Of a stretch of 12,148 nt of DNA, positions 5,386-11,888 are shown piece after piece; within the stretch, counting starts at the first letter, position 1; each line of letters begins with the position of its first letter. The DNA lies in assembly GCA_037440825.1 (NCBI GenBank), contig JBBITJ010000007.1, forward strand, positions 1 through 12,148. The letters are read 5' to 3'. The DNA is from Candidatus Micrarchaeota archaeon (GTDB taxonomy: Archaea > Micrarchaeota > Micrarchaeia > Anstonellales > Bilamarchaeaceae). The notes beneath the pieces were generated by a model. The model was given only the letters and a program-made list of their open reading frames with translations, made no database searches and was not told the origin of the DNA. Both the position numbers and the translations under genes were made by a program.

Positions 5386-5419
5386 GGAAAAGAGGCGCTG
5401 TCTCACACCTTTGAGCGTC
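5386..5419 (-). terminator. Possible terminator after gyrA
   Basis: On the minus strand, GACGCT-N14-AGCGCC is followed by TCTTTTCC immediately after the gyrA stop. Confidence 0.3.
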
Positions 5420-7841
5420 ATTGCTGCGCCTGCGCGGCGCCCTCGTTTTCATTTTCCTGCTGCACTACTGCAAAAGACGCGACCTTCTCGCCTTCGTCCA
5501 GCCTTATTATGCGCACTCCCTGCGTGTTCCTTCCTATCACGCGTATGTCCTTCACAGGAGAGCGTATGGTCTGGCCCTTGGAGCTTATCACTATCATATC
5601 GTTGCTGTCGTCCACGGATTTCACGCCCACGACCTTTCCGGTCTTGGCTGTGCAGTCCATGTTGGTCACTCCCATGCCGCCCCTGGCCTGCACCCTATAC
5701 TCCGAGAACTCGGTCCTCTTTCCGTATCCGTTCTCCGTAATGGTGAGCACGTGCGGCTTGTCGCATATCGTCGCGCCTATGACCTCGTCATTTTCGCGCA
5801 GCCGTATGCCTATCACGCCCTGGCCGGTCCTTCCGATCTCGCGCGCGTCGTTCTCGTTGAACCTTATCGCGTAGCCGTCGCGGGTTGCGATGAACACCTC
5901 GCTGTTCCCGCTGGTTTTCTTCACGTCAATAAGCGAGTCGCCTTCCTTGAGCGTTATGGCTATTATGCCTCCCTTGCGGGGGTTCGCGAACGCGTCGCAG
6001 CAGATCCTCTTCACTATGCCGTTGCGCGTGACCATCACGAGGAACTCCTTATCCGAGAATCCTTCCATGCTTATCCACGAGCTGACCTTCTCGTCCTTGA
6101 GCTCGAGCATGTTCACTATGGGCTTGCCGCTCGCGTACCTTCCTCCTTCAGGAATGTTGTACGCCTTGAGCCAGTGCACTCTTCCCTTGTCTGTGAAAAA
6201 GAGCATGTAGTTGTGCGTCTTGGTCACCACCACATCCTCCACGAAATCCTCCTCCTTGGTCTCCGTTCCCACGACGCCCTTTCCGCCCCTCTTCTGCGTC
6301 CTGTATTCCTGCAGCGGCACGCGCTTCACGTATCCCCTGTGGCTTATGAAAACCACGACCTCTTCGTTCGGTATGAGGTCCTCCACTGTGCGCTCGTCCA
6401 TGCTTTCCTCGATCTGCGTCCTTCTCGCGTCCGCGTACCTCTTCCTCACGTCCGCGAGCTCGTCCTTTATTATCGCGAGTATCTTTCTCTCGTCGCCGAG
6501 CACGCTTTCGAGCCACGCTATGAGCTTCTTCAGCTCCGCGAGCTCGTTCTCCAGCTTCTCCCTTTCCAGCCCTGTGAGCGCCCTGAGCTTCATCTCCACT
6601 ATCGCGTCGGCCTGCTTCTCGCTCAGCGCATAGCCTTCGATGAGCCCTGCTTTCGCGGCCTTCACATCACTGCAGGATTTGAGGAAAGCGATTATCCTGT
6701 CTATGTTCTTCAGCGCGATCATAAGTCCTTCGAGTATGTGCGCCCTCGCCTCTGCCTGCGCCTTCTCGAATATGCAGCGCTTGCGCACGATCTCCTGCCT
6801 GAACGCCACGAACAGCCTGAGCATCTCGTAGAGCGAAAGCGTCTTTGGCGCGCCGTTCACGAGCGCGAGGTTGTTTATTCCGAAAGAGCTTTCCAGAGGG
6901 GTGTTGGCGTAGAGCTGGTTCAGCACCACGTCCGCTGACGCGTCCTTCTTGAGCTCTATCACGACCTCCATGCCGTCCTTGTCGCTCCTGTCGTGTATCC
7001 CTGAAATACCCTCCACTTTCTTCTCCTTGACAGCATCGGCTATCGCGTCTATTATCGCGACCTTGGTTATCTGGTAGGGGATCTCCCTTATGATGAGCTT
7101 CCTGTTCTTCTCGTCGTTCTCTATTTTCGCCCTTATGCGGATTATTCCCTTCCCGGTCTTGTACGCGTCGTATATCCCGGTTTTGCCAATTATCGTTCCG
7201 CCTGTGGGGAAGTCCGGGCCGGGGACCATCTGCAGCACCTTGGCTTCGTCGGCGCCGTCTATCACCGCCACGAGTGCATCCGTTATCTCGCCTAGGTTGT
7301 GCGGCGGTATGTTGGTCGCCATTCCTACTGCTATTCCAGAGGAGCCGTTGATCAACAGGTTGGGGATCTTGGATGGGAGCACAGTGGGCTCCTTCAGCGT
7401 GCCGTCGAAGTTTGGCGTGAAAGCCACGGTCTCCTTGTCCAGGTCGGCCAGCATCTCCTCCGCGAACTTCTTCATCCTCACTTCCGTGTAACGCATCGCA
7501 GCCGCGTTGTCTCCGTCTATGGAGCCGAAGTTCCCCTGGCCGTCCACGAGCGCGTAGCGCATGCTGAAGTCCTGCGCCATCCTGACCAATGAATCGTAGA
7601 TCGCGGCGTCGCCGTGCGGGTGGTACTTACCAAGGACTTCCCCCACCACTCTTGCGCTCTTCTTGTAGGGCTTGTCGTGCGTGTTCCCGAGCTCGTTCAT
7701 CGCATAAAGTATGCGGCGGTGCACAGGCTTGAGACCGTCGCGTATGTCCGGAAGCGCCCTTCCCACGATCACGCTCATGGCGTAGTCGAGGTAGGATTCC
7801 TTCATGTCCTGCTCTATGGGGCGGTCTAGTATTCCGGTCAT
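5418..7841 (-). CDS. gyrA: DNA gyrase subunit A
   Basis: [34 protein letters not shown], active-site AAAMRYTE and [14 protein letters not shown]. The beta-pinwheel CTD has the GyrA-box QKRGGKG, which indicates gyrase rather than ParC. AGGTG SD at 7850-7854. Confidence 0.98.
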
Positions 7842-7907
7842 TTCCTGAGCACCTAATCAGCATTATTTATCGTCGTAAAAATACCTTATTCATATTGCAT
7901 GTCGAGG

Positions 7908-7931
7908 TTTAAAAAGGTTGGGCTACAGCCC
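7908..7931 (-). promoter_or_regulatory. Putative gyrA promoter (TATA TTTTTAAA 7908-7915) with adjacent palindrome GGGCT-ac-AGCCC (7920-7931)
   Basis: TATA-like box about 70 nt upstream of the gyrA ATG in an AT-rich gap. Confidence 0.45.
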
Positions 7932-8027
7932 TTTCGAATAACCGAAAACCACCAAAAAACACAAGGTATCTAAAGCCAGAAATCCACAATTAAGGATTGG
8001 GTTTCCCGCTCGCATCAACTAATGAAA

Positions 8028-8125
8028 ACTACTCAGTCCGCACGTCTCTCATCATCGCCCCCGCGTGGCTTTTTACGGCTTAGGCAGGAAGCTCGGTGAT
8101 CACTTCCATCATCACAAAGGAGTAT
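8028..8125 (-). ncRNA. Box C/D guide sRNA (2'-O-methylation guide candidate)
   Basis: Minus strand, in order: C box GTGATGA (8115-8109), 12-nt guide TGGAAGTGATCA, D' CCGA (8096-8093), 37-nt linker closed by a GCTTCC(T)GC/GCGGGGGC stem, C' ATGATGA (8055-8049), 12-nt guide GAGACGTGCGGA, D CTGA (8036-8033). TATA-like TATAATAAAT lies at 8145-8136 upstream and a T4 run follows box D. Confidence 0.8.
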
Positions 8126-8248
8126 TATCTATTCTATTTATTATAGCTTATGCTGCCAAGCAAGCAGCAATGCGAACAAAATATCCAGGTTTCCATGGGC
8201 GCAGATGCTCGGCCCGAATATATAAGAGTTCCATTTTTGTGCGGGCCG

Positions 8249-9286
8249 CTATGGACATGCCTCGAACTCGCAGTAAGGAGGGACGCGGCCCACGTAGGAG
8301 CCGTCGGCGCACTTCATTATGTCCTGCGAGCAGTAGGCGCACGGAGGTATGTCGTCTATGCACCCCGTGTTGTTAAGCATGAGCGGGATTTCCGGCTGGG
8401 AAGGCGTGGCGTTGCCCTCTGCTGCAGGCGGGCAGGGCACGAACCTGCACGCGGGCGGGACGCGGCCCACGTAGGAGCCGTCGGCGCACTCGAGCAGGTC
8501 CTCCGGGCATAGGATGCACGATTTCACGTCCTCCTCGCACGCCCTCGTCTCGTTGGAATAGATGAAGAGCCTCCTGTCGGGAGTCTTGCACTCCGTTCCA
8601 TTCGTGCCTTCTACGGCGAAGCCGGACGCAATGCACTCGGCGAACGTGGTTATCCTGGAATAATTGACCTCCGGACAGGGTGCGAATTCGCATTCCGGCG
8701 CGACCCGCCCGACGTAAGCGCCGTTGGCGCACAGCTTCGCGTCCTGCGGGCATTCCCCTGAATTCTTCATGAATACCTTGCCGTCGGGGGTGCTGCACGT
8801 CGGCGGATCGGATCCGATTACGGCGAAGCCGGCTGCAGCGCATTCCTCGAAAGACGCGATTCCGGAATAGTCCTGCTCTGGGCAGGCCGCGAAGCCGCAT
8901 TCGGGCGGGACTTGCATGGAAAACGAGCCGTCCCAGCATTCTATCGCCTCGTTGGAGCAGTTGCCATCCGCGGAGGCATTGAGGAATACCCTCCCTTCTG
9001 CAGTCTTGCATCGCTGCGGCGAGGTGCCCTCCACAACGTAGCCGGCATCCACGCAGTCGTCGAAAGACGATATCGTGCCGTTGGTCGCACCAGACAGGTT
9101 GCTTGAAGGGCACGGAGCGAACTCGCAGCGCGGCGGGATCCTGCCCACGGAAGAGCCGTCCGGGCAGACCCTCGCTTCCTGTGTGCATGCCGCCCCTGCG
9201 CCTGAAGCCTGGTTGTACACTTGCGTCGCAACGAGCGCGAGCGCCACCAGCACCGTGAGAACGATCAGGATGTCGCGGCTTTCCAT
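8249..9286 (-). CDS. Membrane-anchored/secreted cysteine-rich modular repeat protein
   Basis: N-terminal hydrophobic helix. Five 4-Cys modules (CxxD/ExxxCxDGSxVGRVPPxCxFxxCP) and three 2-Cys modules (IxxFxE/DCxxxGxxVxGxxPxxCxTxDGxxF). 30 Cys and 9 N-x-S/T sequons. TATAAA at 9313-9308 upstream. Confidence 0.88.
   Translation of the reverse strand: MESRDILIVLTVLVALALVATQVYNQASGAGAACTQEARVCPDGSSVGRIPPRCEFAPCPSSNLSGATNGTISSFDDCVDAGYVVEGTSPQRCKTAEGRVFLNASADGNCSNEAIECWDGSFSMQVPPECGFAACPEQDYSGIASFEECAAAGFAVIGSDPPTCSTPDGKVFMKNSGECPQDAKLCANGAYVGRVAPECEFAPCPEVNYSRITTFAECIASGFAVEGTNGTECKTPDRRLFIYSNETRACEEDVKSCILCPEDLLECADGSYVGRVPPACRFVPCPPAAEGNATPSQPEIPLMLNNTGCIDDIPPCAYCSQDIMKCADGSYVGRVPPYCEFEACP
8280..8490. 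repeat. 34-bp perfect direct repeat (8280-8313 and 8457-8490) inside the Cys-rich gene
   Basis: GGGACGCGGCCCACGTAGGAGCCGTCGGCGCACT occurs twice and encodes CADGSYVGRVP in the last two 4-Cys modules. Confidence 0.95.
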
Positions 9287-9393: not shown

Positions 9394-10065
9394 ATGAAGG
9401 CTGCTAATTTGAAAACTAGGGACGTGGAAGTCATCCCTGCCGTATTGGTGAAGACCAGGGACGCGCTGCTCGAATCCATAAAGAAAGTGAGTCCCTACGT
9501 AAAAACGATTCATATAGATGTGATGGACAACAAATTCGTTCCTAATCTTACAGTAGGGCTGAATGAGCTCAAGAATATGCCCGAGAACGTGCAGTATGAA
9601 TTCCACTGGATGGTGAAGAACCCTGAGCAGTGGATCAAGGGCATCATGGGCGGGCACATCCACCTCGTGCATGTAGAGACGATTGATGGAAATTGGGATG
9701 CAGTGAAGAAAGCGGTGAAGGAAGCCGGAGGGACGCTGGGATTGGCGATAAATCCTGAAACGCCTCTGGAGAAAATACTGCCGTACGCAAAGGGCGCGGA
9801 ACGGATTTTGGTAATGTCCGTGCATCCAGGATTTTCCGGCCAGAAATACATCAAGGAAGTGGAGGAAAAAATCTCGTTCTTGAGGAGGGAATTCCCGCAA
9901 CTCAACATAGAAGTGGACGGCGGAATCAACGCGGAAACTGTCGCTTCGGCGATCAAGGCAGGCGTGGACAAGATCGCTGCGGCGAGCGCGATATTCAACG
10001 CTGGGGACGTAGGTGCGGCGATTGAGAAGCTGAAGAAGATTGCAGGCGATGCAAATGCGCACTAA
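9394..10065 (+). CDS. rpe: Ribulose-phosphate 3-epimerase
   Basis: HIDVMDNKFVPN, EFHWMV, VHVE, GLAINPETP, LVMSVHPGFSGQKY and IEVDGGIN motifs. Confidence 0.96.
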   Translation: MKAANLKTRDVEVIPAVLVKTRDALLESIKKVSPYVKTIHIDVMDNKFVPNLTVGLNELKNMPENVQYEFHWMVKNPEQWIKGIMGGHIHLVHVETIDGNWDAVKKAVKEAGGTLGLAINPETPLEKILPYAKGAERILVMSVHPGFSGQKYIKEVEEKISFLRREFPQLNIEVDGGINAETVASAIKAGVDKIAAASAIFNAGDVGAAIEKLKKIAGDANAH

Positions 10066-10909
10066 AATAACCAACATAAAGCAGCTCCACCTCATCGCGA
10101 ACACTATAAGGCAGGACGTGATAAGGATGCTGCACGAGGCGAAGAGCGGCCATTCCGCAGGCTCCATCGGACTCGTGGACATTTTCACGGCATTGTATTT
10201 CAACGTGCTATACCATGACCCCAAAAACCCGGAGTGGGAAGGACGAGACAGGCTCATACTTTCCAACGGCCACGTGTGCCCGGTGCAATACGCGGCGCTC
10301 GCGAACGCGGGCTATTTCCCCAAGGAGGAGCTCATGACGTTGAGGAAAATGGGCTCGAGATTGCAGGGCCATCCGCACAGGGGAACGCTTCCGGGAATAG
10401 AGAATTCCTCAGGTCCTCTGGCGCAGGGGCTTTCCCAGGCAGTCGGGATGGCGATAGTCGCCAGGGCTGAGAAGAAGAAATGGCGCGTGTACTGCATAAC
10501 GAGCGACGGCGAGCAGCAGGAGGGTCAGAACTGGGAGGCAGTGATGCTGGCTGCGAAGTACAAGCTCGGAAACCTCACCGCGATAATGGACCGCAACAAC
10601 ATACAGATAGACGGATTCACCGAGGAAGTGATGCCTCTAGAGCCCTTGGCTGAGAAGTACAAGGCGTTCGGCTGGAACGTGATAGAGATAGACGGGCACA
10701 ACATACAGAAGATAATTGACGCATGCGAGGAGAGCAAGGCGATATACGAGAAGCCTACAATGATAATAGCCCACACCATCCCAGGAAAGGGCATACCATT
10801 CATGGAATTCCTGACCGAATGGCACGGAAAGACCCCGAGCAGCGAAGAGAAGGAGAAGGCGATAGAAATACTGCTCGAAAACAGGAAGGAGATAGAAAAC
10901 GAGTCGTGA
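10055..10909 (+). CDS. Transketolase, N-terminal (ThDP-binding) subunit
   Basis: SGHSAGS, DRLILSNGH, LQGHP, SSGPLAQG, ThDP motif SDGEQQEG...DRN and WHGK. Start is ATG 10055 or 10049, overlapping the end of rpe. Confidence 0.95.
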   Translation: MRTKITNIKQLHLIANTIRQDVIRMLHEAKSGHSAGSIGLVDIFTALYFNVLYHDPKNPEWEGRDRLILSNGHVCPVQYAALANAGYFPKEELMTLRKMGSRLQGHPHRGTLPGIENSSGPLAQGLSQAVGMAIVARAEKKKWRVYCITSDGEQQEGQNWEAVMLAAKYKLGNLTAIMDRNNIQIDGFTEEVMPLEPLAEKYKAFGWNVIEIDGHNIQKIIDACEESKAIYEKPTMIIAHTIPGKGIPFMEFLTEWHGKTPSSEEKEKAIEILLENRKEIENES

Positions 10910-10913
10910 GAGC

Positions 10914-11888
10914 ATGCTTAATCCTGAAATGCACCTTGACATGAACGGAAAGCCGGCGGCGTTGCGCGACGGGTTCGGCAAGGCTTTGGTCGAGCTGGGC
11001 GAGAAGGATCCCAACGTGTGGGTGCTCACCGCTGATGTCGCGGAATCCACCCGGGTGCACTGGTTCGCGGAGAGATTCCCGAAGAGGTTCGTGCAGGTGG
11101 GCATCGCGGAGCAGAACATGGCTTCAGTGGCTGCAGGCATTGCGGCATGCGGAAAGACTGCATTCATATCCGCGTTCGGGGCTTTCAACCCCGGAAGGAA
11201 TTTCGACCAGATTAGGGTTTCAGTGTGCTACAACAACGTGAAAGTCATAATACACGGCTCGCACGCCGGGATAACGGTGGGGCCCGACGGCGCCACGCAC
11301 CAGATTCTCGAGGACCTGGCGATGATGAGGGCGCTGCCGAACATGACGGTGATAGTGCCTGCTGACATGGAGGAGGCGAAGAAGGCCACGTTCGCCGCCC
11401 ATGCTGGCAAAGGTCCTGCATACATACGCACAAGCAGGGAGAAGGTACCCACCATCACCACCGCGGGCACGCCGTTCGAGGTAGGGAAGGCGAACGTTTT
11501 GCGCGACGGCAAGGACGTGGCGATATTAGCGTGCGGAGTGGAAGTTTACCATTCGTTGAAGGCGGCTGAGCTGCTGGAGAAGGACGGTATAAGCGCTGCC
11601 GTGATCAACGTGCACACGCTCAAGCCCATAGACACCGCGACAATAGTGAAATACGCGGAGAAGTGCAGGCTCGCTGTTTCAGTGGAGGAGCACCAAGTGA
11701 TAGGAGGACTCGGCTCCGCTGTCGCTGAAGTGCTTAGCGAAGTTGACGGAGTCCCGCTCAAGAGGCACGGAGTCTACGACAGGTTCGCCGAATCAGGTCA
11801 AGCGCCTGAGCTGATGAAGAAATACAAACTGGACGCTCAAGGAATTTATGAGACCGTAAAGGAAGCAGTGGCGTATTACAAAAGGTGA
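10914..11888 (+). CDS. Transketolase, C-terminal (pyrimidine-binding/C-terminal) subunit
   Basis: RDGFGKAL, GIAEQNM, GPDGATHQ, GPAYIR, TLKPID and VEEHQVIGGLGSAVAE. It begins 4 nt after the N-subunit stop. Confidence 0.95.
   Translation: MLNPEMHLDMNGKPAALRDGFGKALVELGEKDPNVWVLTADVAESTRVHWFAERFPKRFVQVGIAEQNMASVAAGIAACGKTAFISAFGAFNPGRNFDQIRVSVCYNNVKVIIHGSHAGITVGPDGATHQILEDLAMMRALPNMTVIVPADMEEAKKATFAAHAGKGPAYIRTSREKVPTITTAGTPFEVGKANVLRDGKDVAILACGVEVYHSLKAAELLEKDGISAAVINVHTLKPIDTATIVKYAEKCRLAVSVEEHQVIGGLGSAVAEVLSEVDGVPLKRHGVYDRFAESGQAPELMKKYKLDAQGIYETVKEAVAYYKR

Follow-up and report, generated by a model that had tools for sequence, protein, structure and literature searches.

The DNA between a cysteine-rich membrane-protein gene and gyrA quite probably contains a genuine box C/D sRNA gene that has escaped annotation, about 90 nt long and belonging to a Micrarchaeota (DPANN) archaeon. 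In the window (the whole 12,148-nucleotide stretch of DNA that was analysed), minus-strand positions 8115-8033 read GUGAUGA-N12-CCGA-N37-AUGAUGA-N12-CUGA, which is 83 nt from box to box. A sequence-only reading had described four boxes and two 12-nt guides on this strand, and all of them are found at the positions it gave. The parts of the candidate, its flanking signals and the downstream gene are as follows.

8137..8146, minus strand: TATA-like box CTATAATAAA, 21 nt upstream of box C (sequence reading; putative function)
8109..8115, minus strand: box C, GUGAUGA (DNA GTGATGA), perfect RUGAUGA consensus
8097..8108, minus strand: D' guide TGGAAGTGATCA (RNA UGGAAGUGAUCA), 12 nt (sequence pattern)
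8093..8096, minus strand: box D', CCGA, with GA retained and C in place of the U of CUGA
8056..8092, minus strand: linker, 37 nt (sequence reading)
8084..8092, minus strand: 5' arm of the linker stem, GCUUCCUGC, predicted stem I of the internal K-turn (fold and register tests)
8065..8083, minus strand: linker loop CUAAGCCGUAAAAAGCCAC, 19 nt (fold and sequence reading)
8057..8064, minus strand: 3' arm of the linker stem, GCGGGGGC, after which G8056 opens the G-A-U bulge (fold and register tests)
8049..8055, minus strand: box C', AUGAUGA (DNA ATGATGA), perfect consensus
8037..8048, minus strand: D guide GAGACGTGCGGA (RNA GAGACGUGCGGA), 12 nt (sequence pattern)
8033..8036, minus strand: box D, CUGA (sequence pattern)
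8025..8028, minus strand: T4 run that may act as an archaeal terminator, 4 nt after box D (sequence reading)
5418-7841, minus strand: gyrA, downstream of the element

Box C (RUGAUGA) and box D (CUGA) sit close to the 5' and the 3' end, respectively, the internal D' and C' boxes preserve the nucleotides that form the tandem G.A pairs, and the guide spacers from C to D' and from C' to D are 12 nt each, inside the 10-12 nt range given for archaeal box C/D guides in the available part of PMC7994747. The GTGATGA of box C is the sole occurrence of this heptamer in the window, both strands counted. A pattern of the architecture (RUGAUGA, 10-14 nt, NNGA, 3-60 nt, NUGAUGA, 10-14 nt, CUGA) had a single match within the window, namely the candidate sRNA, and was present in none of 3000 first-order Markov simulated windows (both strands). 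When one mismatch was permitted in C', the looser pattern matched the candidate sRNA alone in 1.285 Mb (the window plus 80 loci), with no match in 91.6 kb of Micrarchaeota, 207 kb of other DPANN archaea, 382 kb of other archaea, and 593 kb of bacterial loci, which served as the negative control; no further match to the architecture existed in these 1.18 Mb of other archaeal and bacterial DNA. The architecture is far beyond chance expectation.

The two ends of the linker pair with each other, GCUUCC(U)GC with GCGGGGGC, in 8 pairs with one bulged U and a 19-nt loop, and ViennaRNA gives the same helix when the linker is folded in isolation. This helix begins right after the A of D' and stops 1 nt before C', so that G8056 together with the A and U of C' makes a 3-nt bulge, which is followed by G.A, A.G, U.C and G-C against CCGA. 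Read from the letters, the C'/D' pairing is a K-turn layout with a C-G pair beside the bulge, and the linker pairing and the 3-nt GAU bulge in K-turn register that had been described earlier are thereby borne out. At the sequence level C'/D' is able to form a K-loop or an internal K-turn, and by the best reading the internal motif is a stemmed K-turn, not a K-loop. A stem in K-turn register with 8 pairs or more appeared in 36 of 20000 shuffles of the linker and in 84 of the 24222 37-mers of the window. The folding energies were unremarkable, both for the linker (MFE -11.3 kcal/mol, z = -0.06 against shuffles) and for the whole 98-nt stretch (z = +0.81, with 157 of 200 shuffles folding equally well or better); therefore, it is the motif architecture and the register that carry the case, and thermodynamic stability does not. 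The naked RNA has other pairing partners as well: GUGAU of box C can pair with AUCAC across the junction of the D' guide with D' (8094-8115, minus strand), GUGAUCAC is an 8-nt palindrome (region 8094-8115 / 8087-8107, minus strand), GGAAGU of the D' guide is complementary to GCUUCC of the linker-stem 5' arm (8087-8107, minus strand), and the MFE folds of the naked RNA are dominated by these alternative helices, box C with the D' guide and the D' guide with the linker arm.

No terminal stem joining boxes C and D was found beyond what the flanks yield, U8117.G8032 and an isolated C8120-G8029, and the predicted start leaves almost no 5' leader. Many accepted archaeal sRNAs likewise have very short terminal stems. 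A terminal stem is named as one requirement for L7Ae binding in the available part of PMC7994747. The stem arrangement of the candidate is reversed, in that the usually stemmed C/D motif is almost stemless and the usually stemless C'/D' motif is stemmed. The sequence-only reading had called an RNA of about 90 nt with a long insert atypical; the candidate is indeed longer than usual, but its stemmed C'/D' is only partly new, as the introduction of PMC8413462 describes archaeal C'/D' motifs that fold as either an internal k-turn or a k-loop. The length of 83 nt with a stemmed insert is unusual and in principle not unheard of.

Compared with archaeal sRNAs of the Pyrococcus, Sulfolobus and Pyrobaculum type, the candidate is alike in its RUGAUGA and CUGA boxes at both motifs and its two 12-nt guides, and the N+5 rule and the L7Ae, Nop5 and fibrillarin partners are presumably common to both. 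Archaeal sRNAs are "generally about 50 nt" in the text available from PMC6009581, and the archaeal sR models of Rfam have 54-57 positions, whereas the candidate measures 83 nt box to box because of its linker stem-loop. Archaeal sRNAs are further described as having their K-turn at C/D, with C'/D' folded as a K-loop (PMC6009581 and PMC7994747, parts available), whereas the candidate has an 8-bp stem with a 19-nt loop at C'/D' in place of the short K-loop, and its terminal stem is nearly absent. Eukaryotic C/D snoRNAs with a C'/D' stem I, such as the yeast snR51, snR41 and snR54 constructs of PMC8413462, have the same helix flanking the internal kink and form a K-turn there, as far as the accessible part of that paper goes. 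However, it describes eukaryotic C'/D' boxes as mostly degenerate and often without a G.A pair, whereas the candidate has a perfect consensus C', retains both G.A pairs and has symmetric halves as in archaea. The circularly permuted or circular Pyrobaculum sR57a and sR57b carry the same strong helix "inside" with the open side at the termini, and permuted family members as well as circular sRNAs are described in Pyrobaculum in the sections seen of PMC6009581. The candidate has the appearance expected if a stem-ended sRNA had been copied in permuted form, and no unpermuted relative of it is known.

A permissive Rfam search of 7850-8260 returned seven matches, all seven to CD-box families: sR1, sR44 (twice), sR18, sR14, sR3 and snoZ30. 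The best, sR1, had E = 0.018 and 18.1 bits against a threshold of 45; none of the matches in this region reached the gathering score, which places the element outside the existing CD-box families, and the window as a whole gave nothing from Rfam at gathering thresholds and nothing from ARAGORN. The snoZ30 match had E = 5.8. We rejected two half-mer RNAs or a second sRNA starting from C', for which the sequence further downstream offers just a degenerate UUGAUGC and lacks a D box at the required spacing.

The candidate has flanking signals of its own. A TATA-like box and a following U-tract, also mentioned in the sequence-only reading, are located as described (8146-8137 and 8028-8025). With the spacing that is usual between a TATA-like box and the start in archaeal promoters, the predicted transcription start lies within a few nt of G8115, and with the T4 run as terminator the RNA would be about 90 nt long. 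Comparable A/T boxes precede other genes in the window, the G+C content of which is 55%. A scan for promoters and terminators of the bacterial type was uninformative for an archaeon. The element is intergenic and on the same strand as both of its neighbours, 133 nt after the cysteine-rich membrane-protein gene and 191 nt before gyrA, and four small ORFs that overlap it had no Pfam match. A mobile element was considered and rejected: there were no direct or inverted repeats in 7800-8320, and blastn against plasmids and phages gave no match.

The proteins most similar to this GyrA carry the names Candidatus Micrarchaeota, Micrarchaeia or Bilamarchaeaceae and share 88, 86, 81, 80, 78, 77 and 76% identity, with the bulk of the further relatives at 65-68%, in agreement with the DPANN host guessed earlier from the sequence. 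The GyrA genome scan comprised 80 loci from genomes other than the source genome, five of them from Micrarchaeota: L002 (88% GyrA identity), L003 (77%), L004 (76%), L005 (66%) and L010 (63%). In these five gyrA loci (91.6 kb) neither the strict nor the relaxed pattern had a match, and blastn-short gave only chance matches of 11-18 nt. Covariance model R2, built on the RNA with the K-turn pairs and the stem, gave six matches with E = 2.7-7.9 in the five loci with filters off (91,571 bases), one of them within gyrA; a run with default filters on the remaining 75 loci gave nothing better than E = 0.86, in a bacterial contig. This homologue negative is weak, since the gyrA loci of the relatives were what was covered and synteny stops at about 7921, just upstream of the gyrA promoter. 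Indeed, nucleotide similarity to L002 extends through gyrA and the promoter before it and ends abruptly at window position 7921, which places the sRNA and the cysteine-rich gene in a rearranged segment. The place upstream of gyrA is taken in L002 and L004 by a DUF2207 gene of divergent orientation, in L003 by 475 nt of A/T-rich spacer that lacks the boxes, and in L005 and L010 by gyrB. gyrB is thus directly before gyrA in the more distant L005 and L010, and absent from that place here and in L002-L004. The gyrA promoter and leader at 7842-7921 (minus strand), conserved with L002 5486-5565, contain CTTTTTAAAC, ACATGCAATA, TTTTACGACGATAA and an SD-like TAGGTGCT.

As to the core proteins, a Pfam scan of the five related loci detected no fibrillarin, Nop5 or L7Ae in 73 of their 78 ORFs (the five gyrA ORFs excluded), nor did a motif scan of these loci; the loci make up about 2% of each genome, too little to speak for absence. 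PMC8481954 reports fibrillarin in more than 90% of the archaeal taxa that it surveyed, and fibrillarin (COG1889) and a Nop5-type protein (COG1498) are within the 38 single-copy genes for archaeal genome completeness in PMC9258230, according to the parts available of these two papers. In the main texts of the open literature that was searched, C/D guide RNAs of DPANN archaea are hardly documented beyond Nanoarchaeum equitans, and for Micrarchaeota no C/D sRNA is described and fibrillarin is not mentioned. The literature searched also gave no joint description of an archaeal box sRNA, fibrillarin and an "internal stem".

The two perfect-match targets proposed in the sequence-only reading are exact reverse complements of the guides. 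These targets are UGAUC-ACUUCCA for the D' guide and UCCGC-ACGUCUC for the D guide (the hyphen follows the nucleotide addressed), and under the N+5 rule that nucleotide is a cytidine in both, the C of ...GAUC-AC... and the C of ...CCGC-AC..., respectively. No rRNA gene was present in any of the fetched loci, and the target proxies were the E. coli rrnH rRNA operon, an rRNA operon on a Halococcus dombrowskii plasmid and 21 tRNAs of archaeal loci. Against the proxy rRNAs and tRNAs the guides reached at most 9/12 matches with internal mismatches, the longest perfect run being 6 bp; among the 21 tRNAs the best match was 8.5/12. The best site of the D' guide in both rRNA proxies was the 16S 3' tail GGAUCACCUCCU (9/12, at most 6 contiguous pairs, internal A.C mismatch), which falls short of the assignable target that had been implied for this guide. 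SD-like AGGTG and GGTGGGAT before gyrA and rpe suggest that the 16S tail of this organism is probably standard. For the D guide the best site in E. coli 16S was 1398-1409 (9/12, internal U.C and A.A mismatches), with C1402 as the N+5 nucleotide, and in Halococcus this site is outside the best eight. We take C1402 of 16S to be a conserved ribose-methylated (2'-O-methylated) position. About two 9/12 matches per guide are estimated to occur by chance in about 4.5 kb, and both 16S sites, the 3' tail for the D' guide and 1398-1409 for the D guide, were rejected as chance-level 9/12 matches. The minimum guide-target match in the Pyrobaculum study was 8 bp, and accepted sRNAs often carry guides for which no target can be recognised, 292 of 1052 guides in that study (PMC6009581, part available). 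Within the window, the perfect target of the D' guide has four non-self sites with 2 mismatches each, at 1189, 1545 and 5663 (plus strand) and at 9425 (minus strand), giving five matches including self when 0.82 are expected and 0 of 200 shuffles reach five; only the site at 1189 falls on the sense strand of a gene (a DsbD-like ORF), and the excess is probably a composition effect. The perfect target of the D guide has one non-self site in the window.

A substantial share of the weight we give to a real sRNA goes to an orphan or non-methylating role. Such an RNA would form a C/D RNP and be young, decaying, or active as an RNA chaperone or in some other role, and would not methylate rRNA or tRNA. 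Neither guide has a convincing target in any proxy, no homologue was seen in the five relatives, the gene sits in a segment that is absent from the closest relative L002 (GyrA 88% identical), and dual-orphan sRNAs exist in Pyrobaculum, as the seen part of PMC6009581 states. However, the target negative rests on proxies and not on the organism's own rRNA and tRNAs, and the perfect boxes and two guides of exactly 12 nt argue against decay, so that we hold the orphan to be a minority possibility, rather unlikely but deserving real weight. A guide of "inside-out" construction, in which the sole stable helix closes C'/D' and the terminal C/D stays open, seems to us improbable. It could have come about when a stem-ended sRNA was circularised and re-inserted, which makes the gene a circular permutation; the RNA could function as a circle; or the L7Ae of Micrarchaeota could require stem I like eukaryotic Snu13, in which case the sRNAs of this lineage would carry eukaryote-like stemmed C'/D' motifs and assemble as mono-RNPs, not di-RNPs.

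The readings that dispense with a guide RNA fare worse still. The element might be a cis-acting, L7Ae-binding K-turn in an mRNA, in the 3' UTR of the cysteine-rich gene or in a long gyrA leader, given that it has the orientation of both neighbours and lies close to them, that the internal motif is a full K-turn with stem I, and that L7Ae is reported to bind archaeal mRNAs (PMC5539422, part available). For such a role a single K-turn is enough, whereas the four boxes and two exact 12-nt spacers make a complete guide-RNA architecture, and gyrA has its own promoter region, conserved with L002 and starting only at about 7921; we therefore regard a cis element as very improbable. That short motifs came together by chance in intergenic DNA is scarcely credible: the boxes are short, and no conservation, target or Rfam family was found, but the simulated windows and the archaeal and bacterial control DNA gave no second instance, and the stem register is independently at p ~0.002-0.0035. 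A genuine box C/D sRNA gene is the reading we prefer.

For this preferred sRNA, we infer transcription, protein binding and methylation as follows. An RNA of about 90 nt would run from about 8115 to about 8025, either transcribed from the TATA-like promoter in front of it or cut out of a longer transcript. L7Ae would bind the tandem G.A motifs of C/D and C'/D', and a Nop5 dimer with two fibrillarins would bridge both motifs across the two 12-nt guides. Each guide would then base-pair with an RNA substrate, and 2'-O-methylation would fall on the substrate nucleotide that faces the fifth guide base, counted upstream from D' or D. For now this is one well-formed candidate gene. If confirmed, it would mean that RNA-guided 2'-O-methylation is retained in reduced DPANN genomes, and it would be a seed for finding further guides. 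Moreover, a stemmed internal K-turn with a stemless terminal motif makes a test case for the nucleation of L7Ae and Nop5 on guide RNAs, and the same stem arrangement could show whether the choice of mono-RNP or di-RNP assembly depends on having a K-loop or a K-turn.

When characterizing the surroundings of the element, we noted several further features. The ORF directly upstream (345 aa, 9286-8249, minus strand, stop codon 8251-8249) has an N-terminal hydrophobic segment and at least five cysteine-rich repeats C-x-DGS-x-VGR-x-PP-x-C-x-F-x-x-CP, alternating with F-x-x-C-x-x-AG-[FY]-x-V-x-G modules; it had no Pfam match, and its local G+C is about 63% vs 55% in the window. A 6-bp hairpin, UGCUGC-N7-GCAGCA, at 8169-8151 (minus strand) lies between the stop codon of this ORF and the TATA-like box of the sRNA, and a second strong TATA-like sequence, TTATATATT, occurs at 8225-8217 (minus strand), followed by a T-rich run ATTTTGTT. 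These features at 8151-8225 may serve to terminate the upstream gene or to provide another start site, for a longer sRNA precursor. Several close GyrA relatives are 950-1270 aa long with intein domains (PF14890, PF14528), and the GyrA of this window is without an intein. In addition, a pentose-phosphate cluster occupies 9394-11888 (plus strand), with a ribulose-phosphate 3-epimerase gene and then a split transketolase, the N- and C-terminal halves of which are encoded apart, in two ORFs; as called, the first of these overlaps the epimerase ORF. In L002, transketolase and transaldolase genes lie about 10 kb away, on the other side of gyrA.
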